Source of the DNA: an uncultured bacterium
Lineage (GTDB): Bacteria > Patescibacteriota > Minisyncoccia > UBA6257 > 2-01-FULL-56-20
Direction of reading: 5' to 3'
NCBI GenBank assembly: GCA_963718515.1
Contig: OY970354.1
Coordinates: 46,363 to 110,362, forward strand
Length of the DNA: 64,000 nucleotides
Positions 6,326-54,432 of the stretch are shown in pieces (positions within the stretch are counted from its first letter, which is position 1; each line of letters starts with the position of its first letter). The notes under the pieces were generated by a model. That model had not been told where the DNA came from, made no database searches, and worked only from the letters and a program-made list of their open reading frames with translations. A program made the position numbers and the translations under genes.

Positions 6326-7021
6326 TTAGCAGCTCCCCAACCCGCCGCCGGGCTCACAGTCGATCGTGCGGGCGCTCACCGTGGTCTCGAGGTTGAACGT
6401 GGTGCTTGCCACCGCGGAATCGGTGGAGCTTGGCGTAATACCCATCGTGATCGTGATGCGCGGCGTCCATTGGTCGCCTTCTACTTGCCCATATAAAAAG
6501 AAGTGGAGATATTCTAATGACACGGTGTTGCCGGTGAGCGATTGGAATGGCCCGTTCTCACAGACGCCCTCGCCGGCGGGATCCACGCTATCACATTCCG
6601 CCAAACTTCCGGCTCCCGGCCCGGCTATGGGCAGAGTATATTCCACATGATTGCCCTCGGCGTCATAGAATATGAGGCTACTGCACTCCCACCAACTCGG
6701 ATTTTCGGAGAATAGCGCGCAACCGCATCCAGGAAGAGCTCCGGGTGATGGGTTGGTCCCTCCCCCATCGGTCACATCGGTATTCCCCGGCGTATTACAA
6801 AAAAGATATCCCGTGCGGATATCGCGCGCCATCTGTTCGAGCGATAAACTCACATTGCTCTCCGCGGAAATGAGCGATGATACCTGTCGTTGGGTCCGAA
6901 GCGCGTTCGTGAATGTTCCGACGGCGATCGCGATAATGATCGTAAAAAGCGCAACGGTGATGAGCAGTTCGACGAGCGTGAACCCTTTTCTATAATTTTT
7001 TTGATTATGGGTGCCAGTCAT
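6326..7021 (-). CDS. minor pilin / pseudopilin (prepilin-type N-terminal cleavage-methylation domain)
   Basis: ORF 6326..7174 trimmed to the ATG at 7021. The N-terminus is MTGTHNQKNYRKGFTLVELLITVALFTIIIAIAVGTF, which carries the G/FTLxE motif. Confidence 0.75.
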   Translation of the reverse strand: MTGTHNQKNYRKGFTLVELLITVALFTIIIAIAVGTFTNALRTQRQVSSLISAESNVSLSLEQMARDIRTGYLFCNTPGNTDVTDGGGTNPSPGALPGCGCALFSENPSWWECSSLIFYDAEGNHVEYTLPIAGPGAGSLAECDSVDPAGEGVCENGPFQSLTGNTVSLEYLHFFLYGQVEGDQWTPRITITMGITPSSTDSAVASTTFNLETTVSARTIDCEPGGGLGSC

Positions 7022-11010: not shown

Positions 11011-12091
11011 TCGTTATGTCCGCTCCAATAATATGCGGAGTTCCGATGGATTGAGTGAGTCAACTCGGCGTTGTCGAGCGTCACTTCTTTATTTTTTACC
11101 AAGTTTGCAAGCGAACGGTTAAGGGTGACCATCCCCTCCTGGAGGCTGGTCTCGATGACGAGATCGATCTGATAGGTCTTCCGTTCACGGATGAGGTTGC
11201 GGATGGCCGGGTTCACGATCATGATCTCCATCGCGGGAATGCGCCCGCCCGAGATGCGCGGGAGCAAGCGCTGATGGAGATGATCGCGACGAGCGTCGCC
11301 GCGAGCTGTGACGTGATCTGACCCTGCTGATCGGCGGGGAATGAATCGATGATGCGATCGATCGTCTGCGAGGCGGAATTGGTATGCAGGGTGGAAAGCA
11401 CCAAGTGGCCGGTTTCGGAAGCCGTCATGGCCGTGCCGATCGAAACCGCGTCGCGCATCTCACCGATCATCACGACGTCCGGGTCTTGGCGAAGGACGGT
11501 GCGGAGTGCCGCGTGGAAGCTCGTGGCGTCGCTACCCACCTCGCGCTGCGAAACAATGCATTTGATCTTGGGTAAAAAGATATTCCACCGGATCCTCGAT
11601 CGTGATCACGTGGTCGGTGCGGGTGTGATTGATCTCATCCACCATTGCCGCGAGGGTTGAGGACTTTCCGTGCCCGGCGGGACCCACCACCAGACATAAA
11701 TCCCTGCGAGAGTTGGGTGAAGTCATGCAGTAAGCGGCGGCAGATTGAGTTCTTCTATTGTTTTGATCCGCGTGGGGATGAGGCGAAGCGCGGCGGCAAG
11801 ATATCCGCGCTGGAAATAGACGTTCACACGGAAGCGTGCCTTCTCTTCAAAGCTATAGGCAAAGTCTACCTGCCGCTGGGTGATGAGCTTGGCTTTCTGC
11901 TCCGGCGTAAGCATCTGCGACATGATACCCTCCGCCGACTCCGGCGTCATGATCGGTTCTTTTTGGAGTGGTACGAGCACGCCGTCAATGCGGAGCGTTG
12001 GGCGGCGTCCGACTGCAAGGTGAAGATCAGACGCGCTTTGCTTCGCCGTCGTCGTCAAAAGGTTATCGAGCTGCTGTTTGTAATCGTCCAT
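11007..12091 (-). pseudogene. pilT: twitching-motility ATPase PilT, frame-disrupted (pseudogene or assembly indels)
   Basis: The homology runs through ORF fragments 11723..12091, 11532..11726, 11219..11539 and 11007..11267. These include the Walker A GPAGHGKS and the HLVLSTLHT motif. Reading the DNA near 11690-11730 needs two separate 1-nt corrections, so at least four frame changes in total. Confidence 0.8.
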
Positions 12092-25988: not shown

Positions 25989-26018
25989 AAAATCCCCCGG
26001 CCGAAGCCGGGGGATTTT
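25989..26018 (-). terminator. intrinsic terminator after the 26065..29502 gene
   Basis: CCCCCGGC-cgaa-GCCGGGGG with flanking A and T runs. Confidence 0.7.
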
Positions 26019-26064
26019 CTATCACGCTAAGTCACAAGCGAAGCGCAATTTTGTACTGACGAGA

Positions 26065-29000
26065 CTAGAACTGGCCGCCGACCGGAGACGTCAGACTGAC
26101 GACCGTGATCGGTACCTCATTCGAAGTCAAGCCAATGATCGACGTCGTACCATTCGAACCATCGACATACGTGAAGTCGTTGGAACCATTAATGGTCGCG
26201 TTGAGTGATTGAGCCTGTTGGGCAATTGCCGGAATCTGGCTCAAGTCAGCCCACAGCGTGAACGTGTACGAACTGCCTGCGGTTATGACCGGCGACTTGT
26301 TCGTTGACGTCGCGAAGTTCCACTGGATGCTGTTGGAAGATGTAGCTTCCGTAGCCCAGAGGTCGGACGTTACGATGTTGTTGCCGCTCGTATCCTTCAG
26401 CACGATCGAGTTGACGAAGCCTGGCGTCGTCGTAGCAGCAGCACCACCAAGCGTCAGTTTCAGCGTGCTCGGAATGTTGTCACCCGCAGCGTTTGAAGTG
26501 AAGGTGATCGAACCGATCTGCTGGTTTGGAGACGCCGGAGGCAAGCTCGAAGCCGAAGAAGCTGACACCGCGAGGATGCTTCGCAAGGTCGTCTGGAGGT
26601 TGCCATTCGCACCTGAGAGGGTCACCCCGGCGGTCTTGTTCGACGTTGCACCACGAGCAACCACAGCGAGTGATGTCGTGCTGTTATTCGAATCAGTCGT
26701 CGTTGCGATCTCAAACTGCGAGGTCGTGTTATCCGAGAGCGAACCGTTGGTGTACGATCCCGCATTGCCCTTGAGGGTAAGCGTGACCGAATTGCCCTGC
26801 GGAACGATCAACGGATTGGTGAAGCTGTTGAAGACATAGATGTAACCCGTACCCGACGCATCAGGGGTCGGCGATTGAGCAGTGCCGAGTTCCGTGGAAC
26901 CATTCCACAAACTGACATTGCTGAACGCGGCCTTGACGGTCGTGGTTGCGGAAACCACATCCAAGACATTCAACTGCGTAACCTTTACGTTCTCAACGTT
27001 CGAAGTTTCCGTGAAGCGGAAGGCTGCGAGCGTGTCACCCGTGGAGTTCTGGACGATCTGGCCTGCCGGAGGATTGCTCGAATCTGCAGCAATCGTCAAG
27101 GAAGGATTACCGTTGAAGCTCACCGTCTGGCCGGCATACGTGGTGTTGCTCGGGATATTCACCGAAGTGAACGAAACCGCGCCGCTACCCGTGTAACCGA
27201 CAAGCGATGTCGCAGGGGTAAACGTGCCCGTTGCCGAAGACAACGAATCCGCATACACATCAACATTGATCGTCTGACCGGCCGGGACGTTGAAGGCCGA
27301 ACCCGAGAAGGAATACGTTCCTTCACCGGATACCACTCCTTGTGTCGTACCGAACTGCGTTCCATTCACCAAAACTTTGAGGTTCTGGAATGCAGATGCG
27401 GTGCTGTTAGGAGTGAGCTCAACGCTTACCGTGTTAACGTTCACGCCTTCAGCCGAAGAAGCGCTGAATGCGTATGAACCGATCCTGATGCCCGTCGTAC
27501 CAGCGGAAACATTCTGGCTTCCGAGAGCGTTGTTCGTCGATACCGACAAGCTCGAAGATACGAGCGTCAACGAGACACCCGATACGCCGGAAGTGTTGGC
27601 TGTGCGGCTGGACGTCATACCCTGCAAGTTGCTGTTATCGCCCGTCAAATTGGCGACGATACTAGAGAAACTTGCTGTGGTCTGAATATCCGCTTTGATG
27701 CTGAGGACACGTGTCGTGTTCGCCGGAACAATGTAATTGATCGGCGAAGCGGACGTGCCAAAGCAGTCATTGTAGACACCAGTGCCTGTCGAAGTCGAGT
27801 AGCTGGCTACTGCAGCCGTACCAATGGTACCGCTACCCGATGCGCAGTCATTGCTTGACGGAGGCTGGTTGATCGTAGTGCCAACCTGATTGCCTGCATC
27901 ATCGGTGATCTCAACATTTTGGATCTGTTGGTTAAGAGCCAAAGTGTTGTTCTGGCCGGAGAGTTGGATGTTGAAGTCGAGGTACTTTACCTTGACCGGT
28001 TCACCCGCTGCATAGACATCGTACTTAGCCAACACTACGCCGGATTGACCCTTTGCAATGTTGCCCGTCGGGGTGTTCGAATCCTGAGTGACAGTGATCT
28101 GTCCCGTCAAGATATTCACCGGGGTTCCGGGACCGCTAATGTTGTTGATCGAGACCGGAACGTTATACTGGCTGTCAACAGCCAAAACATCGTAGCCGTT
28201 CAAGATCTCGAACTGGAAGAAGTCGCTCGGAGAACCCATTACGTCAGCAACGATCTGAACATTGTTGTTTCCCGTGTTCAGCTTCGCCGGAGCGGCGGAA
28301 GCATCGAAGTCGGCGAGGCCCGAGGCCGGAACCGAAGCCAATGTTGCGCCAACCTGCGTGCCGTTCACGAGCAACTTTACGTTCTGGAGGTTCGCATTAT
28401 TTGCGGAACCAATGACGTGGAAGTTGATGTTATTCAACCATACAGGGCTGTTGCCAACCGTGAAGTTCCACGAACCAACAATGTTGCCCTGCGTACCAGC
28501 CGTCACGGTCGTACCGATTGAGGTCGAAGCGACGGATACGGTTGCGAGGGAAGGATTCGTGACGGACGTTACCGTGAAGACATTACCCGTCAACGGGAAC
28601 AAGCCGGTCGAAGTGATCGCATTGTTGTTGGCATCCCACGCGGTCACATCAGATGCCGCCGGCATAGCGAAGGCAGTGGTGTTACCCGCGGAGAGACCGC
28701 CCGAAATATCAATCGCGAGCGTGAGCGTGACGGTCTGGCCTGCCGGAATCGACAAGGTCATACCGGAGAAGCTCAATAAGCCCGAGTTGAGCGAATTGTA
28801 CTGGGAGAGCACCTGACCATTCTCGATCAAGTATGCACCAGAAATTGCGCTATCCGACGAGAACGCCCGTCTTCTGGAAGTTTACGCCAGAGAGGGTTAC
28901 CGCGCCCGAGTTGCCGGCGGTGAAATTCACTGCCAACACCGGAACGCGCGCCGAACCCGAGCTTGCGCTCGAGATCAACGAGCCGGCCGCCGGATTAGTG

Positions 29001-29502
29001 GAAGCCAAGCTGACCTGCAAACCGGTCGCCGGAGCGGTCACCGTAGTGCCCGTGCCAGTCGTGGTCGTAGTGCCCGTCGAGCTCATCGAATTGACGAACG
29101 CGCGGGTCTTAGGACCGAAGTAACCTACCGAAGGGGTGATACCGTTCGCCGCCTGGAACTTCCGCGAGCGCTGACTGTGTGAGGGCGCCGAAGTAACCGG
29201 TCGGGGCAGAGACTGCCGTAAGATATCCCTTTGCAATCAGGAGCGACTGGAGTGCCGAAACCTGCGAGCCTGTGGAACCAACGGTGAGGTCGCTGGTAAA
29301 GTCATAGGTCATCGCGGTCGTCGCCGCTGCCAGAAGTTCCCAATTGGCTTTGAAGCTGTTGGATCTGCGCGAGCAAAGCCGCGATCTGAGCCTGGAGGCT
29401 CGCCGTGGACTGTGCATTCGCGAGAGGCAACGCGGCTGCGCCAACCATCCACAATACTGTGGTGGCGGTGAGTGCCGCTGAAACCAATTTTTTATAATTC
29501 AT
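26065..29502 (-). pseudogene. giant surface protein (signal peptide, coiled segment, PG_binding_1-like domain, long Ig-like beta-rich body) with three frame changes confined to its 5' 700 nt
   Basis: The fragments are 29302..29502 (MNYKKLVSAALTATTVLWMVGAAALPLANAQ), 29109..29444, 28850..29236 and 26065..28830. The homologous N-terminal module of the 21578..24793 protein is reconstructed only by joining frames. Confidence 0.7.
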
Positions 29503-29721
29503 TTTTAATTTAATTATCGATTTATTATTGGTATCGACCTGAGAATCCTTTATGGACTCTGTGAGCCGTCGACCTTGCCGTGCACCAAATCACGTTTTTG
29601 TTTTCTTGTTTCAGGAACCGTTTCCGGCACTTCACTCTATTCGCTCGAACGGCCGCCTCGTGAGGGAAAGCGACGACCGATCAAATAGAAGAGAGCGACG
29701 AAAACGGGGTTGATTATCTAA

Positions 29722-29814
29722 AAAAGAAAAAACTCGCTTTTGGCGAGGCTGAAAAAACAAGAAAATCGACCATCAAAAAGTCCATTCTCTGCGGTTCAGC
29801 CTCACACCGAACCT
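29722..29814 (-). ncRNA. possible short transcript or leader ending at an internal terminator
   Basis: In minus sense a TTGACC-N19-TATAAT promoter (29851-29821) is followed by a GGCTGAA...TTCAGCC helix and then CTCGC-caaaa-GCGAG plus TTTTTTCTTTTTT (29749-29720). The spacer is long, so the promoter call is weak. Confidence 0.25.
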
Positions 29815-29948
29815 TTTACTATTATACTGTCCGCTATGAGAAAAGGGTCAAATTAACTGGGGAAAACTTCCCCAGAACCCCCTACTTCTCACGGCACATT
29901 AGATAACGTCCGAGCGGATGAAAGGTTACCCTATTTCGCCCAAAAAGT

Positions 29949-30644
29949 CTATGCCGCCTGGGTCACCCGATAGAACACCGACGGTCCAGCGATTCCCACC
30001 CGCTCAATGAGATTTTGTTCAAGGAGTGTTTGTAAATCATAGCGAATAGTTCTCTCACTGCATTCCGGCAAAATTTCCTGAATATCTTTCAATCGGCAAT
30101 TGCCGGATTGCCGGATTCTATCCAAAATTGCCGTTTGCCGGATTGCCGATTTCAATATGCTGTTTATATTACTTGGCTGGTTTTGTTCTTCTTCCGTTGC
30201 CGGTTCTTCTATTTTTGCCGGTTCGATTGCCGATTGCCGGATTATTGCCGGTTCGGACTTTTTTGCCGGTTCAGGTTTCTGGAACGGTTCGCGCTCCGAT
30301 TTAGAGAATATTTCGGCAACGTCTATTTCCTGTCTTTTTACCTTATTCTTTGATTCGGCAATTGCCACATCCAGGACATATATCTCCTGAAGGATAATAT
30401 TGCTATTGGCAATCGCTATAAGGTTCACGTCTCCCGCAAACTTTATAAGGCACTCTGTGACCCGGAGAGATCGCTCCGCCATCGCATAATCCTCCGCCGT
30501 TGCCGCTTCCAACAATCCGGCACCACCTGCCCGGAGCCTTTCGGAAAAATCTTTTTCCTGCATATTCGCCGCCAAACGAAAGATCGCATAGGCTATCTCA
30601 TACGATTTGGTGAGAATAAAACGCTCTTTGCCGGATTCTTTCAT
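29949..30644 (-). CDS. DeoR-type winged-helix regulator with an N-terminal helical-bundle domain and an EPA-rich linker
   Basis: ORF 29949..30680 trimmed to the ATG at 30644. The C-terminus ILDRIRQSGNCRLKDIQEILPECSERTIRYDLQTLLEQNLIERVG matches the DeoR HTH pattern. Confidence 0.6.
   Translation of the reverse strand: MKESGKERFILTKSYEIAYAIFRLAANMQEKDFSERLRAGGAGLLEAATAEDYAMAERSLRVTECLIKFAGDVNLIAIANSNIILQEIYVLDVAIAESKNKVKRQEIDVAEIFSKSEREPFQKPEPAKKSEPAIIRQSAIEPAKIEEPATEEEQNQPSNINSILKSAIRQTAILDRIRQSGNCRLKDIQEILPECSERTIRYDLQTLLEQNLIERVGIAGPSVFYRVTQAA
30096..30117 (+). repeat. left copy of a 22-nt perfect inverted repeat GCAATTGCCGGATTGCCGGATT
   Basis: Its exact reverse complement occurs at 30657-30678. 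This copy lies inside the coding sequence and encodes IRQSGNC. Confidence 0.9.
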
Positions 30645-30651
30645 ATGGCGG

Positions 30652-30680
30652 ATTATAATCCGGCAATCCGGCAATTGCAA
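30652..30680 (-). promoter_or_regulatory. consensus-like promoter TTGCAA-N17-TATAAT ending 7 nt before the ATG (leaderless geometry)
   Basis: -35 at 30680-30675, -10 at 30657-30652, ATG at 30644. Confidence 0.6.
30657..30678 (-). repeat. right copy of the 22-nt inverted repeat, forming the promoter spacer of the same gene
   Basis: The plus strand reads aatccggcaatccggcaattgc. It overlaps the TTGCAA -35 box and abuts the TATAAT -10 box. Confidence 0.9.
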
Positions 30681-30704
30681 GAAATACGGCCTTTTGCCGG
30701 ATTG

Positions 30705-31419
30705 CTATAATACCCAGCGAGCGGAGGCGGTGACGATGACGAGCAGGGTAAAAATGATGGCGGACGTGGCGAATATCTTCTCCCGGGAAAGCTCGCCAAA
30801 AATGTAGCGGGGCACGAGATCGATAAATATCGTGGCGATAAGGAATACAATTGCCGATTGATAAACAAAGTCGAGCGGAAGGAAAAGTCCAACGATCAAG
30901 ACCTGCCATATAAGAACGAACGAAACCCAGCTCATCATGCGCACGAACGCGCGGCCTTCTTCGGGCGAGACCGCGAAATTTTTTACGAAGCTCGATGCCA
31001 TCGCGCTCATTGCCCATGCGACGAGAAGGCTGTATAGAAGCGACAGGCCCCCAAAATCTCCGCCCGCTTTCATGAAAAAGCTCCGCACCAGCAAATACGT
31101 GAGTATAAGCACAAGGATCTCATATGCCGACTTGCGATCGATGATGAGGAGATCCTTTATGAGAAGTATGAGGTAAAAAATACCGGCAAGGAGGACGGCA
31201 AAGAAGAGGTTCGGCGCCTCAAGAAGAGAAATAACAAGCACAACCAAAAACGGCAGCCGCAACCCTTCCGCTTCCTGCGATTGGGAAGAAATAGAGATAA
31301 AGCGCGACGAAGAAAAACAACCAGAATGGGAGCGCCAGCCACGCGGCGGCAAAAACAACGGCCCTAAGAACTAAAGACCAATGAATTCGCTTTAAAATTG
31401 ACTTTAACTTTTCCGCCAT
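30705..31419 (-). pseudogene. polytopic membrane protein, one frame change near 31260
   Basis: The N-terminal part (MAEKLKSILKRIHWSLVLRAVVFAAAWLALPFWLFFFVALYLYFFPI) lies in ORF 31219..31461. The rest lies in ORF 30705..31358. The start is uncertain because it overlaps the clpB 3' end. Confidence 0.5.
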
Positions 31420-42094: not shown

Positions 42095-42120
42095 ATAACA
42101 CTCATTTTACCATATAAAAC

Positions 42121-42181
42121 AAAAAGCCCTCTCCTTTGGCCGAATTATTCTTATCACGAGGCCAAAGGAGAGGGCTTTTTG
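42121..42181 (-). terminator. long hairpin terminator, loop family B, directly after pnp
   Basis: The 21-bp perfect stem is AAAAAGCCCTCTCCTTTGGCC / GGCCAAAGGAGAGGGCTTTTT. The 18-nt loop is GAATTATTCTTATCACGA (42142-42159). Confidence 0.7.
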
Positions 42182-42183
42182 TT

Positions 42184-44333
42184 TTATACCTCCATCTGCT
42201 TCAGCGACAAGCCGATTTTCCCGTTCTCTGCTTTGATGATCTTTGCGCGGACGCGGTCGCCGAGATGCACGACGTTTTCCACCTGCTTCACAAATCCCTG
42301 CTTGAGCTCCGAGACGTGGATCATGCCGTCGTTGCCGCCGCCGAGATCGACGATCGCGCCGAACTCGAGGATCTTCACGATCGGCCCTTCAACGATCTCG
42401 CCCACTTTGAATTCTTTGGTAAGACCCAAAATCTCCGCGACCGCGGCTTCGACTTTCGCAAGGTCAACGCCGGAGACATACACTCCGCCGTCTTCTTCTA
42501 TATCAATGCCAGCGAGTGAATATTTTGCGATAAGGCCATTGATCATTTTGCCGCCAGGGCCGATAACGGTGCCGATCTTCGCCGGATCGATCTTGAACTG
42601 GCGGATCTTCGGCACGAACTGCGAGATCGCATCGCGATGTTTTGGTAATGTCGCCTTGATCGTTTTCAAAATATGGATGCGCGCGGCTGCTTTGCCTGTT
42701 CAAACGCTTCTTCCAATATCTCCATAGTGAGTCCGTCCACTTTGACATCCATCTGCATGCCGGTCACGCCATCGTTCGTTCCCGCAACTTTGAGATCCAT
42801 ATCGCCATGATGGTCTTCGGGGCCTTGGATGTCGGTCAGCACTTTGTAATTATTCACATCGGCCATACCGTCCGCATTGAACGCCATCATGAGTCCCATC
42901 GCGATGCCCGCGGCCGGCTTCTTGAGCGGCACGCCGGCGTCCATGAGCGAGAGCGACGGACGCGCACACTGTCGCCATGCGAGGACGAACCGTTGGATGA
43001 CATGATTTCCGAAACAACACGGATCGTGTACGGGAATTCTTCCTTGCTCGGGATCAATCGCTCAAGCGATTTGCGCGCAAGATTGCCATGGCCGATCTCG
43101 CGGCGCCCGGGCCGCGGAATGAACCGACTTCGCCAACCGAGAACGGCGGGAAGTTGTAGTGCAACATAAAACGCCGCTTGCCGGTGGTCTCCATCGTCTC
43201 GATCATCTGCTCGGCTCCGGGCGCCGCGAGCGTCGTTATCGCGAGCGCCTGCGTATTGCCGCGCACAAAAAGCGCCGAGCCGTGCGTGCGCGAGAACAAT
43301 CCCACTTCGCCATCAAGCGCGCGAACTTCGTCAAGCTTGCGGCCATCGGGACGCTGTTCCTTTTCTAAAACATTCTTATGGACAAGGTCATTCACCATCT
43401 CGTCGTAGAAAAATTCCACCGCCTTCCAATTGATACTTGTCTTTCGTGGCGCCGAACTTTTCTTTGATGTGCAGAATGAGCTCGTGATGGAGCGCGCCGA
43501 CCGCGGTCGTGTGTTCCACTTTTGTCGGCTTATAGATCGCCGCCTCGAGCTTGTCCGCCAGGAACGCGCGCACTTCCGCCTGAATGTCGGCATCGGGCTC
43601 TGCGAGCGCAACCTCCGTCTTTGGCTTACCGATCTCCTTCCGGATGTTCTCCTGGAACGCGATCAGCTTGTTGATCTCGCCCTGCGCGAGCGTGAAGCCC
43701 GCGACGACGTCTTTCTCTTGCGCATCCAAGCCGCCAAGCTCGATCATGTTGATGCGATCCTTGGAGCCGGAAACGAACGCATCGAATATCGGCAGGTTCG
43801 GTTCGGCGACGGCGCTGTTATCCGGATTGATGATAAATTGTTTGTCCGCAGTTTTTTGCGCGACGCGCACACCCGCCACCGGGCCATTCCATGGGATGTC
43901 GGAGATAAAGAGCGCGGTCGAAACGCCGAGCAGTCCGACGAATTCCGGATCGTTCTGCTCATCGATCTGCAATACCGTCACGACCACCTGTATCTCGCGG
44001 CGCATTTTGTCGTTGAAGAGCGGGCGGATGGTGCGGTCGACCAAGTCGGCCGGCGAGGATCGCCTCTTCGGACGAGCGGCCTTCGCGGCGCACATAGCGG
44101 CTGCCCAAAATTTTTCCTGCGGCATAGAACTTTTCTTCATAATCCACTTTGAGCGGCAGGTAATCGATGTCGCTATCCTTACGCGCCATCACCGCCGTCG
44201 CGAGTACCACTGTCTCGCCATACTTTGCGATCACTGCCGCATTCGCCTGCTCGGCCAACGCCGAAATCTCTATCGTCAACGTCTTTCCTGCGATCTCAAC
44301 CGAAAATGCTTTTTTTGCAACATATATTTTGAT
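42184..44333 (-). pseudogene. pnp: polynucleotide phosphorylase, multiply frame-disrupted
   Basis: The homology runs through fragments 43959..44279, 43388..44140, 43054..43611, 42666..42944 and 42184..42669 (KH and S1 domains at the end). The likely ATG at 44333 is out of frame across an A7 run. At least five frame changes. Confidence 0.85.
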
Positions 44334-45743: not shown

Positions 45744-45779
45744 AAAACATTGTGCGACACATCGGCGTATAATGAAGCT

Positions 45780-46726
45780 ATGGCAGAAAAAGTGACGGCA
45801 AAAAAAACTGTTCCAAAGACGGAGATCGAGCGGCTCCTCCAAGATTATTTGAATTATCTCGAGATCGAAAAAAATCGGTCGCCGAAGACGAGCGAGAACT
45901 ATAAGCACTATCTCGGCGAATTCTTGAAATTTGCAAAAATATCCCGGCCTGACGAAATCACGGACAGCGTGGTGCGCGAGTTCCGTTTAGCGCTCGCGCG
46001 GCGCGAAGGCCTTAAGCGCATCACGCAGGGATACTACGTGATCGCCTTGCGTAATTTTTTGAAGTATTTAGCGCGGCGCGATATCAAGGCGCTCTCGGCG
46101 GAAAAGATCGAGCTCCCCAAAGTGCCCGGACGCCAGATCGACACGCTTGAGTATGGTGACCTTGAGCGCCTACTCGCCGCTCCAAAGGGCGATTCACTCC
46201 GCGACCTGCGCGACAAAGCAATCCTCGAAATGTTTTTCTCGACCGGCCTGCGTCTCGCCGAGCTCTGCGCACTCCCCCGTGGGATCGACCTCAAGCGCGG
46301 TGAAATGTCCGTGCGTGGCAAGGGCGACAAACTGCGCGTCGTATTCATCTCCGACTCCGCGCGTGAGGCGGTGAAGCGCTATCTTGGGCGCGCGCGGCAA
46401 AGGGCGGTGGCGATGCCATAGAGGAAAAGTTGTTCGTCAGCCTCGACCGGCGCGGCAACGTGATCGGCCCCATCACCCCGCGCGCCGTCCAGCGCCTCGT
46501 CGCCGCGCGTGCCGTCCAAGCCGGCATCCCCAAGCATATCCATGCGCATCTGCTCCGCCACAGCTTCGCCACCGATCTATTGGTGAACGGTGCCGACCTG
46601 CGCTCCGTGCAAGAGCTCCTCGGCCACGCAAATATTTCAACAACGCAGGTCTACACTCACCTCACGAACAAGCAGTTGCGCGAAACACACAAGGCGTTCC
46701 ACGGAGTGAGGAGAGTAGAAAAATAA
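45780..46726 (+). pseudogene. xerC: tyrosine recombinase XerC/XerD family, one frame change near 46400-46425
   Basis: The N-terminal SAM-like and core domains lie in ORF 45750..46421 (ATG at 45780 preferred). The catalytic C-terminus ([12 protein letters not shown]...[15 protein letters not shown]) lies in ORF 46430..46726. Confidence 0.8.
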
Positions 46727-46730
46727 AACG

Positions 46731-46790
46731 CATAGCTATTGAGCGAGTGGACGTTCCTACGTCGGAGCGAAATAGCTATGGGTTTTTATT
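46731..46790 (+). terminator. terminator after the xer gene
   Basis: 10-bp stem CATAGCTATT/AATAGCTATG with a 30-nt structured loop, followed by GGTTTTTATTTT. Confidence 0.5.
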
Positions 46791-46927
46791 TTGCAGCGGT
46801 GCAGGAGATGGGACGAAGTTGGAACTATCGTCGCCCTAAGTTATATATAGGATTTTAGCAGGAATTTTTTATCAGGGCTACTCGCGATTAGGATTGCGTA
46901 GTTTCCGCGAAGGATTATACTTTTCGT

Positions 46928-47668
46928 ATGTTCACGCCAAAAACCAAGAGGATCGACGAGCTGGCAAAGAAATTCCCCGACCGGATTGCCGAACTGGAAG
47001 GCATTTTCAATCAGAAAACGAATGTCTATATCGACTATGCCAACATCAGGCCTTGGGCGAATAAATTAGGATGGCACATTGAACCACGACGATTGAAGCA
47101 ATTTTTGGATTCTTTTGATACCGTTCATGCAGTTAATTTTTATAACGGCACATTGACGGGCGATTCTGATTCCGAAGTTTTTATGGCTGAGATAAGGCGG
47201 TATGGCTTCAATGTCCATACGAAGCCGGTCAAGAAGATGAAGCTCTCTATCGACGTTTCAAGTATCCCGTCCAATTCACCGGATATTCTAAAGGATTTTA
47301 TTCGTAAGCCCTTACTCCAGAAACTCAAGATTGAAACAACCGAATTTTTGAATGGCCAACTGAAAGACCTGAACAGCCAAGGGGTTTTATTCATCGAAGA
47401 CCTCAAGTGTAATTTTGACGTGGAAATCGGCAGAGATATGCTGCTTGATGATAAAAATAGGGTAACCAGCTTTGTGCTTTGGAGTGGCGACAGCGATTTC
47501 GCCGATCCAGTTCAGCAATTATTGGGCGATGGCAAAAGAGTCGTTTTATTCGCGACGGCCCGCCGCGTTTCTTCGGAACTTAACGCGCTCACCCACAAAG
47601 GACTATTCATTTTCGATATTCAAAAGATCAGAGATTTTATCTGCTGGAAAAAAGAAATAGCCCCATAA
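46928..47668 (+). CDS. NYN-domain (LabA-like) nuclease family protein
   Basis: 246 aa. Motifs are VYIDYANIRPWA, NFDVEIGRDML and LWSGDSDFADPV. The promoter TTGCGT-N16-TATACT ends 6 nt before the ATG. Confidence 0.7.
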   Translation: MFTPKTKRIDELAKKFPDRIAELEGIFNQKTNVYIDYANIRPWANKLGWHIEPRRLKQFLDSFDTVHAVNFYNGTLTGDSDSEVFMAEIRRYGFNVHTKPVKKMKLSIDVSSIPSNSPDILKDFIRKPLLQKLKIETTEFLNGQLKDLNSQGVLFIEDLKCNFDVEIGRDMLLDDKNRVTSFVLWSGDSDFADPVQQLLGDGKRVVLFATARRVSSELNALTHKGLFIFDIQKIRDFICWKKEIAP

Positions 47669-47674
47669 AATTGC

Positions 47675-47712
47675 AAAGGGGACTCCTTTCGGAGCCCCCA
47701 AGCTTTTGATTT
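47675..47712. terminator. bidirectional terminator between convergent genes
   Basis: GGGGACTCC-tttc-GGAGCCCCC with one mismatch. An A-run lies on one side and T-rich sequence on the other. Confidence 0.55.
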
Positions 47713-47859
47713 CGTGATCATTACTGATCCCTATCAGGTTATTGCAAAGCGAGCCGCTTGTCAATAACCCTTAATTAATACCGGGATTTATTAGGTTTTG
47801 TTTCAGGGGGCTATAGCTGGATACCAACGGGCTGCCAGTGAGATCAGAAGCACAACTTT

Positions 47860-49479
47860 CTATTTCTTATCCCTTGCCTCGCGCTGTTTTTCCAAGATAA
47901 CATCCATCAAGATCAGTCGTGATTCGGAATCGACGGCGCGTCCGCTTCGCAAATCGTCAATAAATTTTTCTTGCATCAAGTGTAAATCCCATAGCGACAT
48001 CTTCCTTAAATTTTCTAATTCGCCCATTTTTTCGGGACTAACTTTTACTCTCGGTTCGCCACCCTCTGCGAATTCAAATGAAACTCGATTTCCCGTTTTG
48101 CGTTCGCTCAATTTGTCGGCCGCGAGAATTTTGTCGATCACGCGAATCATGATCATACTATGCAAAGTTCCGAATTGTTTTTGGCCTCTGTTACTATCCA
48201 ACCATTCTTGAATCCCGCGCTTAACCTCGTTTAGTATTTCTTGCGGTGGAGTCCCTTGCGATAGATAGTAAGCAATATCAGGGTCTTTGATTTGTTCGCC
48301 CAACGTTAATGTATCTTGATAAATATCTCCGGTGATCGGAACATCAATCAATTTTAGGCTCTCCAAATCTTTCGATGATTCGCCACCGAATAACGACGAA
48401 CGGCCTTCTGCCCGATTAATGGTTCCTATTATTTTTTCAATCGAGCGTGAATCTTGAGACGTAATGGCATCAACTAATGCGTCGCTCATTTTTTCTGCAA
48501 CCATCGCTTCTTCATCGGAAGATGCGCCAAGATAATCTCGCCATTCGGCAAGCGGTTTTTCAGTACCCGTGCCCGATTTTTGTTCATAAGGCGGAATCGT
48601 GTTGTAGGGGATGTTATATTTAGCGCCCGCTTCAGCAGCTGCCGTATTTAGCTTTGCCACAAAAGCATTTTTTTGATCAGTGGTAAGAGCATCTTGATAT
48701 TCTTGCAACTTCCCAAACGCAAACCAGTACCAACTGCCGATCGCCTGAATCACGTCCGCATTCGATCCCTCCGCTTTCATCACATCGTCAAGATGATTTA
48801 ATGATCCCTCGATTTCCGTGCTCGCCGCGCTGTTTTCCAGTGCAATCGCCCTCGCTTCAAGGTTTTCAATGTGAGACAGATCAGCCCCCGCTTCTTTCGC
48901 TTTGGCAATGTCTTCAAAAAGTCCGTCCATGGCACGCTTGCTGGTAATTTGTTTTTCGCGAACCGCTTGCTCCGCTATCTGTAAACTGCTATCAACCACT
49001 CGTAGCCGGTAATCTTTTCGCCCCTGTTCTTTATCGTGTCCGATCTCTACTGCATTTTCTTGCGGCTTGGGTTCGTGATTTTCCATACCTCCATTATCTC
49101 CTTGAACAGCCCTTGCGTCAACTGAATCTTCGGGTGATTTTTTGACCGAATCTATTTCTGATTTTGCTTCGCGAGAGATGGTTTCTGCTTCGGCGTTGAT
49201 TTCGCTTAATTGCTCGTCAATATGATATTCATTTCGTAGTCCGCGCAATGCTTCATCCGAAAAATCGAAGCTCTGGCCAGCATCTTCGATTTTTTGATTT
49301 CCTTCAACCGCGATTGACGCCGCTTCTTGCGAAATCTCCGTCTCGGCAACTTCGGCATGAGCTTCTGGCGATGCTTCGATTGTAATTTCCTGACGAACTT
49401 CCGCGACGGGAATTTCAGGTGTGGGCTGTTGTTCCGTCGGTGTTATATTTGATTGCTCGAAATTTTTGGATTGATTCAT
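47860..49479 (-). CDS. hypothetical protein, acidic N-terminal third, no recognisable domain
   Basis: The 539-aa ORF is intact. Its start overlaps the stop of the upstream 71-aa ORF (ATGA). Confidence 0.6.
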   Translation of the reverse strand: MNQSKNFEQSNITPTEQQPTPEIPVAEVRQEITIEASPEAHAEVAETEISQEAASIAVEGNQKIEDAGQSFDFSDEALRGLRNEYHIDEQLSEINAEAETISREAKSEIDSVKKSPEDSVDARAVQGDNGGMENHEPKPQENAVEIGHDKEQGRKDYRLRVVDSSLQIAEQAVREKQITSKRAMDGLFEDIAKAKEAGADLSHIENLEARAIALENSAASTEIEGSLNHLDDVMKAEGSNADVIQAIGSWYWFAFGKLQEYQDALTTDQKNAFVAKLNTAAAEAGAKYNIPYNTIPPYEQKSGTGTEKPLAEWRDYLGASSDEEAMVAEKMSDALVDAITSQDSRSIEKIIGTINRAEGRSSLFGGESSKDLESLKLIDVPITGDIYQDTLTLGEQIKDPDIAYYLSQGTPPQEILNEVKRGIQEWLDSNRGQKQFGTLHSMIMIRVIDKILAADKLSERKTGNRVSFEFAEGGEPRVKVSPEKMGELENLRKMSLWDLHLMQEKFIDDLRSGRAVDSESRLILMDVILEKQREARDKK

Positions 49480-49691
49480 CGTTGTATCGATTTCTTGATT
49501 TCCGCCAGCTTCTCTTGCCGCAGGACTTCAACGAAATTTGATATGATGTTATCTCGACGTTTTTTCAATTCAATCAGCCGCCCAACATGCCTTTGCTTGA
49601 TTGCGTCAATTTTTTTATTCTTTTGTTCGTCAACGGCTGACATACAACCCAGTTTACATGCTTTTCCCCTCATTTTCAACGGCAGGTCCAC
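49476..49691 (-). CDS. small basic coiled-coil-like hypothetical protein
   Basis: The 71-aa ORF is translationally coupled to 47860..49479. The true start may be the internal Met at 49643. Confidence 0.4.
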   Translation of the reverse strand: MDLPLKMRGKACKLGCMSAVDEQKNKKIDAIKQRHVGRLIELKKRRDNIISNFVEVLRQEKLAEIKKSIQR

Positions 49692-49837
49692 TTCACTGGA
49701 CTTTCCGTATCCGTCCCCGCTATACTAAGCTTGCGCGAACGCGCAGCCATCCGATTATGGCGCACGTTACCAAGCGTAGTATAGATTCCCGACGCATCCC
49801 TGATGCGCCGTTTTTGTATCTGGTAAAATGAAGCAAT

Positions 49838-50521
49838 ATGTTGCGGTATCTGTTCACGTCAAAGTATTTCAAATACGGTCTCAGTTTGACGCTTTTGGGA
49901 GCCCTCGGCATAGCCCTCTTCGGCGTGTTCCGCATCGCCGCTTTTTCATATTTCGGCCCGATCACTTTGCCCTACACGACGCCGATTGACGACATTTCAG
50001 CCATCCTCTTTTTCGGCGGCTTGCCCGTCTTTGAAGCCATCGCTTTGCATAAATGGCTGTATGGCGACATACGACAGGAAATAGAAGCGAGAGAACAGAA
50101 CCAAGCGACAGTTTCAGTGCAAGAAATCGCTCCGGCTGTTGCGACTTTGGCGGCAGCGACCATCATGCCAGTTGCCGCGCCCGTCGCCACCCCTTCCACC
50201 ACCACCGATCTTGTTTTTATGGACGAAGAAGGCATTTTGAGACTTGACAACACGACCGCTGAACTGCCAGCCATGAAAAGCGAGCATCTGCTCTGCCGCG
50301 CCATGTTCAAGTATCCGGTGGGCAAGTTGGTTGATTGGACTATCCCCTATGAGGAGATGACGGGCGAGGAGCTGAACAAGGTGAACTATCCCGACGAATA
50401 TTGGAAAGCATGGCACTCGCTTTATGACACGACGAAAGCATTGAACACACGAGTGAACGAAGGGCTTGGCATTGAGCGCTTGGTGAAATGGAAAGACAAC
50501 ACATTGCAACGGACAAGGTAG
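49838..50521 (+). CDS. membrane protein with a possible C-terminal winged-helix-like domain
   Basis: 227 aa with two N-terminal TM helices. The C-terminal ~90 aa loosely resemble an OmpR-type DNA-binding domain, with low confidence. Confidence 0.45.
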   Translation: MLRYLFTSKYFKYGLSLTLLGALGIALFGVFRIAAFSYFGPITLPYTTPIDDISAILFFGGLPVFEAIALHKWLYGDIRQEIEAREQNQATVSVQEIAPAVATLAAATIMPVAAPVATPSTTTDLVFMDEEGILRLDNTTAELPAMKSEHLLCRAMFKYPVGKLVDWTIPYEEMTGEELNKVNYPDEYWKAWHSLYDTTKALNTRVNEGLGIERLVKWKDNTLQRTR

Positions 50522-50595
50522 ATTTTCGTCGTCGTTTTTCGTTTGAGTCAAACGATTCAAACCCAGTCAAATAGCTGTCCGGTACGCTTCATCAT

Positions 50596-50790
50596 GTGAA
50601 GCGCCAATTTTCCGAACAACTTATCTCGCGCATGATCGAATATGCGCACCGCAAATGGAACCTACGCATTTCAGAAGACGAAGCGGAGGAACGTTTGCGT
50701 TCCCTTGCGAGCGTCTACATCACCGTCTCGAAGATTCGGGCGCGGAAGCACAAGGAAAAGTTAGACGACAACCAAACCCATGCAAGTTAA
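50596..50790 (+). CDS. small hypothetical protein
   Basis: The 64-aa ORF has a GTG start and overlaps the next ORF by 11 nt. Confidence 0.3.
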   Translation: MKRQFSEQLISRMIEYAHRKWNLRISEDEAEERLRSLASVYITVSKIRARKHKEKLDDNQTHAS

Positions 50791-51262
50791 CTTCACCCGC
50801 GTACCGAATAGGATTCTTACGGCGCTCATCACGCTCGATTTGACGAAGCGGCAGATCAAAATTATCTGCCTTGTCTTGCGCCTGACGTATGGCTGCCACG
50901 TGCCGTGGGCGTTTTATGAAAAGAAATATTTCCGTGCCGCAGGATTGCATAGGAGCGCGATCGGGGCCGAACCGACGAGAAACATCTTCTTGCAAGGGAT
51001 TTCCGCATATAACGATTATGTTGATGCCGATCCTGATGAAAAGAAAGAATTGCTTTCTGAACTACTCTGGAACTTTTCGATACAAAACAAAATTGTTCAG
51101 GATTTCCGCTTCAAACCGACGTATGAAGCTATCGCAAAAGAACCGAAACCGACCAATTTTGCAATGATGTGCCCAGGAGAGGACTTGAACCTCCACGCCT
51201 TTCGGCATCAGCTCCTAAAGCTGACGTGTATGCCATTTCACCACCTGGGCAGAATACTATGA
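50780..51262 (+). CDS. phage replication protein O-like N-terminal domain protein (3' extent unreliable)
   Basis: MQVNFTRVPNRILTALITLDLTKRQIKIICLVLRLTYG matches the FTxIPNxLL...L(S/T)xxExRVLLxIxRxTYG pattern of Rep-O N-terminal domains. The last ~30 codons read through tRNA-Leu, so the gene is truncated or fused. Confidence 0.45.
   Translation: MQVNFTRVPNRILTALITLDLTKRQIKIICLVLRLTYGCHVPWAFYEKKYFRAAGLHRSAIGAEPTRNIFLQGISAYNDYVDADPDEKKELLSELLWNFSIQNKIVQDFRFKPTYEAIAKEPKPTNFAMMCPGEDLNLHAFRHQLLKLTCMPFHHLGRIL
51170..51250 (-). tRNA. tRNA-Leu (anticodon TAG), long variable arm
   Basis: The cloverleaf gives acceptor GCCCAGG/CCTGGGC, anticodon stem TCAGC/GCTGA, loop TTTAGGA, variable arm GCC-GAAA-GGC and a T-loop TTCAAGT. 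Confidence 0.85.
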
Positions 51263-51304: not shown

Positions 51305-51333
51305 TTGACAATACCATATATATATGGTATTCT
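51305..51333 (+). promoter_or_regulatory. promoter TTGACA-N17-TATTCT whose spacer is a 20-nt perfect palindrome ATACCATATATATATGGTAT
   Basis: -35 at 51305-51310, palindrome at 51311-51330, -10 at 51328-51333. An RBS GAAGGTGAG lies upstream of the ATG at 51402. Confidence 0.6.
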
Positions 51334-53096: not shown

Positions 53097-53498
53097 TTAG
53101 CAAGCCTGGAGACTGCCGCCAGTGGAGCTGAACACGCTTCCAACAACAAGCGGAAGGGCGCGGGCCAGGAGGCCTACACCAATGGCGATGGCCGCGTAGA
53201 GCAACGTGGCTCCAGCGCTTTTTACCTTCTCCGGATCGCCCGCCGCGGTGAGATACTTGAATGCAGCGACGATGACAAAGATGATCGCAAGTACGACGAG
53301 GAAATAGAATGCCCAGAGGAAACCAATACACAAGAGACCGAGGATACCACCAATGCTCGTGATTCCACTGGTAGGACCACCTACTGAGCCCGGAAGTGCG
53401 GGCGATGTGTTTGATGTCTGTGCGAACGAGAGCACCGGCAGAACCAATGCAATGATCGACGGGCTGAATTCCTTTGCAAAATTGATTACTTTCTTCAT
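53097..53498 (-). CDS. TrbC/VirB2-like small pilin-type membrane protein, paralog 1
   Basis: 133 aa. It has a signal peptide, TM1, the loop FKYLTAAGDPEKVKSAGATLLYAAIAIG and TM2. Cys residues lie before TM1 and at the C-terminus. Confidence 0.6.
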   Translation of the reverse strand: MKKVINFAKEFSPSIIALVLPVLSFAQTSNTSPALPGSVGGPTSGITSIGGILGLLCIGFLWAFYFLVVLAIIFVIVAAFKYLTAAGDPEKVKSAGATLLYAAIAIGVGLLARALPLVVGSVFSSTGGSLQAC

Positions 53499-53591
53499 TT
53501 TCTAATGAATATTACAGAATGTTCGACCTTTCGAATTTACTCTATGAGGATACCATAATGGGTCTCTTGTGGGCAAACCCAAAAGCCCAAC

Positions 53592-53978
53592 CTAGCCTAG
53601 GCAATCCACATTGGCACTTACCTTGGTGGGGAAAACGCTTGCAACGATCGAGGGGAATCCTGCGGCGAGGAGGGCGACCGCAACCCCTACTGCGGCATAG
53701 GTCAACGTCCTCCGCGCCCGCGACGTTTTTTCCGTGTCGTCGCCGGCGGTAACGTACTCAAAAGCTGCGTACAATACCATAATGACCGAAACGATAATGA
53801 TGATCCAGAAGAACCAATCCACAACGCTACACAAAAACTCCTGAAGATCGGATGCGTCGGTAATCGGAGATGTCGCCCCGGAAGTAGAAGCGGCTAATGC
53901 CGTAGAGATCTGTATGCCCCATAACATCGGCGCGATGAGAATCGGCGATGAAACAAAAAATCTTTTGATCTTATTCAT
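53592..53978 (-). CDS. TrbC/VirB2-like small pilin-type membrane protein, paralog 2
   Basis: 128 aa with the same architecture. The loop is FEYVTAGDDTEKTSRARRTLTYAAVGV. Confidence 0.6.
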   Translation of the reverse strand: MNKIKRFFVSSPILIAPMLWGIQISTALAASTSGATSPITDASDLQEFLCSVVDWFFWIIIIVSVIMVLYAAFEYVTAGDDTEKTSRARRTLTYAAVGVAVALLAAGFPSIVASVFPTKVSANVDCLG

Positions 53979-54048
53979 GGAACGCTAAGATTTATTTCGA
54001 CCGTTTTTATTACTATCAGTATGGCACATTCTCCCTAAAAACTCCATG

Positions 54049-54432
54049 TTAATTATTCGGCAGGATGCTCTTAATAATATAGGGAACCCCGCCTGCAATA
54101 AGCGCTAAGGCGAGTCCTATGGCGGCATAGGTTATGGTTTTTCTCCCTTTTGAAAACTTCTCCGGATCGCCTGCGGCGGTCATGATCTGAAATGCCCCGA
54201 CAAGCACCATAATGACGCTGAGAGGAATCGCAACGTCCGTGATGAGAAATCCCATGACGCTTTCCAACACGCTCAAAAAACTTTCACTTCCCTGATTGCA
54301 ACCGGTTCCCAACGGATCACATAATTTGACCGGATCAGTTTGGGCGAACGCGATGCTCGCCACCGCAAAAAAGGCCATCACACTTCCGCTCACCCCTGCC
54401 ACCTTCTTCCAAAGTCCTTTCATTCCCTTCAT
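54049..54432 (-). CDS. TrbC/VirB2-like small pilin-type membrane protein, paralog 3
   Basis: 127 aa. The loop is FQIMTAAGDPEKFSKGRKTITYAAIGL. Confidence 0.6.
   Translation of the reverse strand: MKGMKGLWKKVAGVSGSVMAFFAVASIAFAQTDPVKLCDPLGTGCNQGSESFLSVLESVMGFLITDVAIPLSVIMVLVGAFQIMTAAGDPEKFSKGRKTITYAAIGLALALIAGGVPYIIKSILPNN

Follow-up and report, generated by a model that had tools for sequence, protein, structure and literature searches.

Introduction

What occupies the interval between a xer recombinase gene and the 3′ end of tRNA-Leu(TAG) in an uncultured bacterium of the Patescibacteriota, and by which enzyme was it put there? The locus lies in a stretch of 64,000 nucleotides (GenBank assembly GCA_963718515.1, contig OY970354.1, positions 46,363 to 110,362 of the forward strand), here called the window, and positions are counted from its first letter. 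A reading made from the sequence alone had marked 46798–51250 as a candidate integrated element with a decayed attachment (att) repeat at its far edge and no integrase of its own, and had likened it to elements that exploit the Xer recombinases of their hosts. By comparing the window with related loci (numbered L001, L090, and so on), we find that the block is very probably a defective copy of a family of small integrative elements of Paceibacteria-type Patescibacteria (Candidate Phyla Radiation, CPR), which encode their own large serine recombinase (LSR) and measure 4.5–6.3 kb.

Composition and content of the block

The genes of the block lie in the interval from xer to tRNA-Leu(TAG), and ARAGORN and Rfam both placed the 3′ end of the tRNA toward the block, as had been read by eye. 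All of the open reading frames (ORFs) listed earlier were present, namely a NYN gene, a coupled pair encoding 71 and 539 amino acids (aa), genes for proteins of 227 aa and 64 aa, and a Rep-O-like ORF. An Rfam scan with E ≤ 1 over 40–56 kb returned only the tRNA in or near the block. The AT-richness suspected from the sequence was borne out by calculation, with a GC content of 0.462 compared with 0.532 ± 0.018 in equal-size segments (rank 3 of 1193) and a tetranucleotide distance of z = 2.55, a value reached by only one of 197 other, non-overlapping segments. The composition of the block thus deviates from its surroundings by both measures, and the sibling elements described below have GC contents 3.6–5.7 points below those of their own flanks. 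The element proper extends from 46803 to 51168 (4,366 bp).

Empty and occupied sites in related genomes

One genome per species was scanned with the repaired Xer sequence, which yielded 80 loci from Paceibacterota/Minisyncoccia-type Patescibacteria. If the block is an insertion, relatives should have xer followed directly by tRNA-Leu(TAG), and such empty sites were found: in at least a dozen genomes the xer stop codon and the 3′ end of the tRNA are 5–90 bp apart, and at least 11 relatives with such a gap show a single GTGC/GTGN. The closest relatives, L002, L005, and L080 (Xer 87–89% identical), have an empty site, and in L002 the 3′ end of the tRNA lies immediately next to a hairpin that resembles the one following xer in the window and has GAAAAATAAAACG in common with it. 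The order pnp, NYN (211 aa), rpsO, xer, tRNA-Leu(TAG), pilin-like genes is kept in a large share of the 80 loci, empty sites included. A tblastn search of the block proteins against these loci gave no match, the short matches of the Rep-O-like ORF being antisense translations of the tRNA only. Accordingly, distant relatives share the flanks of the block and not its gene order.

Intact copies occupy the identical site in the close relative L090 and also in L095 and L099, in the order xer, p227-like, p64-like, RepO-like, and LSR genes, then tRNA-Leu(TAG), so that the element is polymorphic for presence at a precisely defined target. Other copies are located at tRNA-Leu(TAA) in L082 and tRNA-Tyr(GTA) in L087, and a remnant lies at tRNA-Leu(GAG) in L097/L098. 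Two targets are not tRNA genes: the copy in L083 abuts the 3′ end of ruvB, and that in L100 abuts a protein-coding gene, likewise at its 3′ end. The precise empty sites and the intact siblings at the same site uphold the earlier proposal of an integrated element at this tRNA, and together with the composition they support the view that the block was acquired horizontally and integrated at the 3′ end of tRNA-Leu(TAG).

The same interval holds other material elsewhere. In other relatives, it is filled by 0.2–6.8 kb of unrelated content, which includes a protein of 1956 aa and membrane proteins resembling glycosyltransferases as well as small cassettes of low GC that recur. One cassette of two genes (94/97 aa and 359/352 aa) is found at L007:10925–12302 and L014:10976–12329, and L022, L029, L033, and L079 carry ORFs of about 195–204 aa from a family starting MKGD..KILE…GYGASY. 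These low-GC occupants have no termini of the LSR family, and the interval has the appearance of a general hotspot.

A deletion chimera in place of a Rep-O-like gene

The ORF that had been described as a phage Rep-O-like N-terminal domain running into the tRNA encodes 160 aa (p160). Both features are present, as the frame does run through the tRNA and the N-terminus does match Pfam Phage_rep_O (37.6 bits against a cut-off of 28.7, residues 4–61), but the rest of the ORF is the tail of an LSR. PHROG families of O-like initiators and DnaD-like loaders also matched the N-terminus. The homologues of p160 fell into two sets. The first is a tight 174-aa Phage_rep_O family that matches residues 1–64 only, with up to 94–95% identity, and the second comprises short proteins matching only residues ~64–141. 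In L082, L083, and L084, the gene next after that for the 174-aa protein encodes an LSR of about 500 aa (Resolvase, Recombinase, and Zn_ribbon_recom domains), and it is to the final ~75 residues of these LSRs that the second half of p160 shows homology.

The two parts could be delimited on the DNA. The truncated RepO-like gene occupies 50780–50968 (+ strand) and encodes residues 1–63 of the 174-aa protein (Phage_rep_O, 3.3e-9), with 94% identity over residues 1–64 to the homologue P0003, after which the homology stops. The C-terminal remnant of the LSR (~residues 420–487) follows at 50969–51168 (+ strand) and ends in the P half-site ...CCGACCAATTTTGCAATGAT; in tblastn, residues 420–493 of the L090 LSR aligned to 50969–51190 with 78% identity. 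At the DNA level, window positions 49696–50965 correspond to L090 7940–9186 and positions 50969–51251 to L090 10870–11152. Compared with L090, the window lacks 1,683 bp; the shortfall against both L095 and L082 is 1,677 bp. The junction at 50969/50970 (GGGGCCGA|ACCGAC) has 2–3 nt of microhomology and joins the two parts in frame. Adding ~1.68 kb of lost DNA to the element gives ~6.05 kb, comparable with 6,082 bp in L082 and 6,249 bp in L095.

By these alignments, the supposed Rep-O-like ORF running into the tRNA is a deletion chimera of a RepO N-terminus and an LSR C-terminus. The catalytic, recombinase, and zinc-ribbon domains have been deleted, and the window copy no longer encodes the three-domain protein that is present in L082, L083, L090, L095, L099, and L100; it is a derivative of the LSR family and a non-functional member of it. 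The statement that the block has no integrase of its own is literally correct, since there is no intact one, but the last ~74 LSR codons survive at 50969–51190.

The full-length RepO-like protein is ~30% identical to the O proteins of lambdoid phages and to a DnaD-like loader of a Geobacillus phage, in matches that cover at most ~80% of the protein (query residues 4–142). Like the lambda O initiators (PF04492), it has an N-terminal winged helix matching Phage_rep_O. It differs from them in that the full-length form has only 174 aa, of which residues 1–63 remain in the window, and in that no iterons were found. The window holds no full-length initiator with a C-terminal domain, and the core of four copies contained no iteron array.

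Attachment sites

The boundaries of the element were located by comparing the junctions of different copies. The left junction in the window reads …TTTATTTTGCAGCG|GTGC|AGGAGATGGGAC…, with the core GTGC at 46799–46802 (+ strand; B|P′), and the right junction reads …GCAATGAT|GTGC|CCAGGAGAGGAC…, with the core at 51169–51172 (P|B′), which is the last 4 nt of tRNA-Leu(TAG) read on the + strand. GTGC is all that the two junctions have in common in the window, L090, L095, L082, and L099, so that the att sites share only a short core. The right ends of the copies are nearly identical (…CCAATTTTGCAATGAT|GTGC|tRNA), and the left ends follow the pattern GTGC-N3-AGATGGGACGAAGTTGGAAC. In the window, the left terminus with the P′ half-site (AGGAGATGGGACGAAGTTGGAAC...) lies at 46803–46850 (+ strand) and contains the P′ motif GGGACGAAGTTGGAAC. 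This 16-mer, with up to 2 mismatches, occurred 9 times in 1.48 Mb of sequence (the window and the fetched loci), each time at the inferred left end of an element. From these junctions, attP can be reconstructed as ...CCGACCAATTTTGCAATGAT-GTGC-AGGAGATGGGACGAAGTTGGAAC..., and the empty attB would read xer hairpin-GTGC-CCAGGAGAGGACTTGAACC. The exact crossover dinucleotide is probably TG.

The segment 46798–46825 had been noted for a loose resemblance to the 3′ half of the tRNA and taken as a possible decayed att repeat. As the far edge of the block it marks a true element boundary, but the repeat is unsupported. The local alignment scored 15 compared with 13.8 ± 3.0 for the null, 31% of random 201-nt segments aligned equally well, and neither a repeat search nor a local-alignment scan of the whole block detected a direct repeat of the tRNA end. 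We suggest that 46803–46825 is the P′ half-site of the element and the tRNA end the B′ half-site, and that one recombinase would bind both, which would account for the resemblance. Both B′ and P′ have GGAC at positions 9–12 after the core, followed by an outer motif that is TTGAAC at positions 13–18 in B′ and TTGGAAC at positions 17–23 in P′, which is 4–5 bp further out. In the structural model of the LI integrase, the distal motif in attP is likewise displaced outward by ~5 bp relative to attB (PMC3783163). The outward shift of the distal, zinc-ribbon motif in P′ was judged by eye on few sequences. The non-tRNA targets of a subfamily with the core GTTG follow the pattern N8-GGAC-NTGAAC.

The recombinase frame crosses the reconstructed attP

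When the P arm, core, and P′ arm were joined, the LSR reading frame remained open in all seven non-decayed copies. Across attP it reads …MMC-(A/R/T)R-WDEVGT(L/I)(V/I)(A/S)(L/M)…, and ends at a stop after 1–8 further codons; with a difference of exactly 6 nt across attP, the GTTG subfamily is in frame as well. The P′ side of the window copy (46803–46850) would encode the last 15 codons of the recombinase in the circular form (RRWDEVGTIVALSYI*). In the integrated state, the LSR tail is read from the antisense strand of the tRNA or ends at an immediate stop, as in L095. Since the frame spans attP in the circle, integration would replace the last 15–19 codons. Within codons 6–10, the changes are conservative and affect the first and third codon positions. 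Codons 1–5 do not vary as DNA either, so that constraint from the binding site and constraint from coding are not separable there.

Attachment sites within coding sequences occur in other systems. In SSV1-type viruses, attP lies within the gene of the tyrosine integrase, which is cut in the middle. In mycobacteriophage BPs, attP lies inside the repressor gene and immunity depends on integration (PMC4557955). The present family resembles both in that attP is part of a coding sequence and integration alters the C-terminus of the product, here that of the recombinase itself. BPs, however, has its repressor gene split and recombines by a tyrosine integrase, whereas here the last 15–19 codons of a serine recombinase are exchanged.

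Core module, control region, and cargo

The conserved module of the family consists of genes for a p227-like protein, a 51–64-aa protein, the RepO-like protein (174 aa), and the LSR (~500 aa), in that order. Upstream of the module, the copies share a conserved control region, beyond which the cargo region varies. In the window, the control region (49697–49810, + strand) comprises a promoter (TGGACT-18-TATACT, 49697–49726), a 14-bp inverted repeat with arms at 49720–49733 and 49771–49784, and a terminator-like hairpin with a T-run (49793–49807). According to promoter and terminator scans these elements are common to all copies, the inverted repeat having been seen in 4 of them. Across nine copies, 4 of the 14 pairs of the inverted repeat covary and one cell is broken, and no Rfam family matched at 49697–49810. 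Because the left arm overlaps the −10 box, the repeat is more readily explained as an operator- or origin-like site acting at the DNA level than as an RNA helix.

The first core gene (49838–50521, + strand) encodes p227, whose earlier description as a membrane/winged-helix-like protein agrees with structure prediction. The AlphaFold2 model (pLDDT 81.7) has an N-terminal membrane helix hairpin and a C-terminal winged helix, and its best Foldseek matches were the DNA-binding domains of ToxR, RstA, and OmpR/PhoB (probability 0.98–0.99), which suggests a membrane-anchored protein of the ToxR/OmpR type. The p227 family has 30 members, all unannotated. Every sibling element has the gene in a syntenic position, and neither GenBank phages nor PLSDB plasmids contained a match. 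The next gene (50596–50790, + strand) encodes p64 and overlaps the RepO-like gene by 11 nt. Homologues with 58–95% identity hold the same position in the siblings, and neither Pfam nor PHROGs gave a family match. From its position, p64 is a candidate regulator or recombination directionality factor.

The cargo is different in every copy, and BLAST among the cargo proteins of different copies revealed no similarity save that between two NYN proteins and that between the L007 and L014 cassettes. The window copy carries a NYN gene and two orphans. The NYN-domain (PIN-like) protein (46928–47668, + strand, 246 aa; Pfam NYN 5.8e-15), a putative nuclease, weakly matched the LabA-like NYN model of PADLOC (4e-7), and a 90% identical homologue in L096 adjoins another decayed recombinase remnant together with two different orphans. 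The 539-aa orphan p539 (47860–49479, − strand) has an acidic N-terminus and belongs to no Pfam or PHROG family. It matched only itself in a word-indexed search of 5.8 billion proteins, an exhaustive HMMER search returned only partial, unannotated remote matches (e.g., residues 145–290), and PADLOC gave one weak match (SoFic, 9.7e-4). The 71-aa ORF (49476–49691, − strand) overlaps the 539-aa ORF by 4 nt, which points to translational coupling, and matched no family in Pfam, PHROGs, or PADLOC; the pair was also called on the independent short-read contig L001. Overall, PHROGs, PADLOC, and Pfam gave only the NYN match and sub-threshold noise for the window cargo, and Pfam and PADLOC nothing meaningful for that of the siblings. 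Searches for capsid, coat, morphogenesis, and packaging genes (Pfam on the block and the sibling cargo, PHROGs on the block) found none, and no structural, packaging, or transfer genes were recognized in these elements.

Two further copies have cargo that can be named. The element at L100:4398–11151, of the GTTG-core subfamily, carries cargo resembling a diversity-generating retroelement (DGR), with an RVT_1 fragment, bAvd, and an FGE-sulfatase/N_methyl protein, and sits at the 3′ end of a gene for a 1086-aa surface protein. In L099, an AbiEii-like gene and a reverse transcriptase (RT) lie beside a P|P′ junction. The remaining copies carry orphans.

Horizontal transfer, decay, and serial insertion

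Between the window and L099, Xer is 67–72% identical, while identity reaches 95% for p64, 94% for the RepO N-terminus, and 89% for the LSR tail. This is evidence that the element moves horizontally between hosts whose core genes have diverged far more. Decayed copies are frequent and include those in the window, L013, L096, L097/98, and L103, as well as L104 with a frameshifted LSR.

Traces of former occupants were also noted. The otherwise empty site at L008:2040–2079 retains a ~16-nt P-arm scar (caattttcataacgat|GTGC), which indicates that a past occupant was lost by deletion and not by precise excision. A decayed sibling occupies the same site at L013:10940–12090, with the P′ motif at 10940 and the P arm, GTGC, and 14 nt of tRNA at ~11700–11757. 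Another ~250 bp with a long palindrome then precede the real tRNA-Leu(TAG) of L013, so that 18 nt of the tRNA end are perfectly duplicated, perhaps as a relic of a second, different insertion. In L099, the intact element has at its left end (6890–6946) a complete attP-like junction (CCAATTTTGCAATGAT-GTGC-P′ arm), with the AbiEii-like gene and the RT to the left of it, which suggests that elements integrated in tandem or serially and that the older copy then decayed.

Proposed history and alternative explanations

Taken together, the comparisons suggest the following course of events. In intact members, a single operon encodes the membrane-anchored winged-helix protein, the ~60-aa protein, the 174-aa RepO-like protein, and the ~500-aa LSR, with the cargo across the control region. 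The LSR would recombine P arm-GTGC-P′ arm with the tRNA 3′ extremity (B arm-GTGC-T-arm/acceptor), and as only the GTGC core is shared, no long tRNA repeat would be formed and the tRNA would stay intact. Such an element probably entered tRNA-Leu(TAG), by chance just downstream of the host xer. A later microhomology deletion of ~1.68 kb took out the catalytic domains and left RepO codon ~63 joined in frame to LSR codon ~420, and the copy in the window would no longer be self-mobile.

The loss of self-mobility does not necessarily make the copy dead, as a full-length LSR and a directionality factor supplied in trans, from elsewhere in the genome or by a newly arriving sibling, could still excise or move it. 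Its P arm is identical over 20 nt to those of L099 and L097, the P′ motif is perfect, and both end sites are intact; all core and cargo ORFs save RepO and LSR are open, and the P|P′ junction beside the intact element in L099 shows that tandem or serial arrangements exist. However, there is no second LSR within the window, and many copies are decaying in place (L013, L096, L097, L103, and L104, with the scar in L008), which makes continued mobility in trans rather unlikely. The idea that the block has no recombinase of its own and relies on the host Xer next door, as would an integrative mobile element exploiting Xer (IMEX) at a dif-like site, has two facts in its favour: a XerC/D-type gene stops 72 bp short of the element, and the block contains no intact integrase. 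The tyrosine recombinase just outside the block is indeed there, but its adjacency to tRNA-Leu is ancestral synteny that is kept in genomes with empty sites, and siblings occur at loci without xer nearby. The junction falls on the 3′ end of the tRNA and has GTGC as its core, no dif-like site flanks the element, and the xer–tRNA gap of empty sites can be 5–21 bp, too short for a 28-bp dif. An LSR remnant in the window and complete LSR genes in the intact siblings show that the family has a recombinase of its own. Xer is a bystander, and we consider mobilization by Xer extremely improbable and reject it.

An insertion at a tRNA 3′ end would also be expected of a classical island with a tyrosine integrase, in this case one that had lost the integrase and whose distal repeat had decayed to the loose similarity at 46798–46825. 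That similarity is insignificant and is explained by the P′ motif, which is found at the non-tRNA sites of L083 and L100 as well. The intact, presumably recent siblings have an LSR and no tyrosine integrase, and their junctions share only GTGC; Pfam and PHROGs detected no tyrosine recombinase in 46803–51168, and no far-border repeat of at least ~15 nt was found. Such an island is therefore very improbable. Just as little credence is given to the view that no mobile element is involved and that a variable intergenic region between xer and the tRNA is refilled and emptied by homologous recombination. Other relatives do hold unrelated content in this interval, and this reading may apply to those occupants, but the block has defined, conserved termini and shares its core module and recombinase remnant with elements at unrelated loci.

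Several points weigh against the preferred reading, that of a defective LSR element. The deletion is seen in one assembly, perhaps made from long reads and with a frameshifted xer next door, and the independent short-read contig L001 does not reach the deletion junction. The att sites and the crossover were derived by comparing junctions alone, the half-site shift involves few sequences, and the left arms (B and P) fit less cleanly. With 64 kb of the genome in view, an intact LSR of the family could exist elsewhere. The class of the element may be plasmid-like, satellite, or other; scans of IMG/VR found no relative, and GenBank phages and PLSDB plasmids reach at most ~30% identity.

Comparison with known systems

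The LSR of the family has the same Resolvase, Recombinase, and zinc-ribbon architecture as those of LSR prophages and islands (Listeria A118/LI integrase, phiC31, Bxb1). SCCmec (staphylococcal cassette chromosome mec) with CcrAB is a further large-serine-recombinase system. As in LSR prophages, the att sites are short and share a few central bases, with common half-site motifs of which the outer is displaced by ~5 bp (PMC3783163), and unidirectional integration with a separate directionality factor for excision would be expected here likewise. The family differs in that no LSR among GenBank phage records exceeds 29% identity with its own, in the small size of the elements (4.5–6.3 kb), in the preferred target (the last 4 nt and the T-arm of class II tRNA genes), in an LSR ORF that crosses attP, and in its hosts, the ultra-small Patescibacteria. 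With P4-like tRNA islands, which use tyrosine integrases, it has in common the insertion at a tRNA 3′ end, the intact tRNA, the lower GC, and the variable cargo, whereas it has no tyrosine integrase and only GTGC in place of a 15–50-nt repeat of the tRNA end. Like the IMEX at dif (CTXphi, gonococcal genetic island), the window copy is a small element beside a Xer-type gene without a working integrase, but the family has its own LSR, inserts at tRNA ends, has siblings away from xer, and shows no dif-like site.

Scans of IMG/VR with p539, p160, and p227 yielded no relatives, and the sibling LSR found one generic LSR with 24% identity. Nothing nearer than ~30% identity was present among GenBank phages and PLSDB plasmids, and the searched literature contained nothing relevant on a CPR serine-recombinase element. 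The kind of element, a serine-integrase integrative element at a tRNA gene, is known, and the family appears to be undescribed.

Flanking genes and other features of the window

The host xer gene (XerC/D-type tyrosine recombinase, 45750–46726, + strand) lies outside the element and is split by a frameshift into 45750–46421 and 46430–46726, with Pfam Phage_int_SAM_1 and Phage_integrase on both pieces. The frameshift (46380–46430) falls in a GC-rich linker whose length varies among relatives, for which reason its exact position cannot be fixed, and xer is intact in, for example, L005 and L090. The gene may truly have become a pseudogene, or the frameshift may be an error of long-read assembly. 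The xer of L025 (10001–10887), a metagenome-assembled genome from long reads, has several frameshifts, which supports the view that some frameshifts in such assemblies are sequencing errors. A host hairpin with 22-nt arms and a T-run (inverted repeat I4, 86% complementary) follows the xer stop at 46719–46792 and forms the B-arm side of the left junction.

At the other end, the host tRNA-Leu(TAG) (51169–51250, − strand) was called by ARAGORN and by the Rfam tRNA model with 56.4 bits. A palindrome to its right (51305–51333, AATACCATATATATATGGTATT) was considered as a dif-like or recombination site and rejected, as it is the TTGACA-17-TATTCT promoter of the next gene, conserved at this place in nearly all relatives. 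Farther downstream, 53097–54432 encode three tandem paralogous membrane proteins of ~130 aa with an AAGDPEK motif. In relatives, these proteins resemble pilins of the type IV secretion system by Pfam, and 3–5 copies lie downstream of the tRNA in most of them.

Elsewhere in the window, the stretch at ~26000–31000 is the sole one with a tetranucleotide distance equal to or greater than that of the block. It holds a 921-aa orphan ORF (26065–28830) and a DeoR-type helix-turn-helix protein, and the GC content dips to 0.45 at 29.5–30.5 kb. The cumulative GC skew has its maximum near 29 kb, which may mark the replication terminus. A near-perfect palindrome or hairpin of ~80 nt at 42110–42190, just upstream of the pnp region, gave sub-threshold Rfam matches to the mir-186 model on both strands.

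Significance

For the annotation of such genomes, the locus teaches that a "Rep-O-like ORF" can be a deletion chimera and an adjacent Xer a bystander. The mobile elements of Patescibacteria, which are ultra-small and mostly uncultured, have barely been catalogued, and here a single decayed copy opened the way to a coherent family whose ends are defined and which has natural attB/attP pairs and several target tRNAs. The family would be a concrete vehicle of horizontal transfer in the CPR, with cargo that includes a diversity-generating retroelement and abortive-infection-like genes. Its compact set of serine integrases with predictable sites could be tried as genetic tools in the CPR or elsewhere. 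It also appears to offer a natural case in which integration rewrites the C-terminus of the recombinase itself, and the recombinase ORF spanning attP and the tRNA-mimicking P′ arm are the points of greatest value for follow-up.

A bolder reading, which we put forward only tentatively and think less probable than its negation, would see in the block the fossil of an undescribed, Patescibacteria-specific family of mini-elements. Its LSR would hit the last 4 nt and the T-arm of class II tRNA genes by means of an attP arm that mimics the tRNA. The gene running across attP would yield an episomal C-terminus (…WDEVGTLVAL…) or a host-encoded one and thereby act as an integration-sensing switch, and the elements would shuttle DGR, AbiE/RT, NYN, and orphan cargo among divergent CPR hosts.

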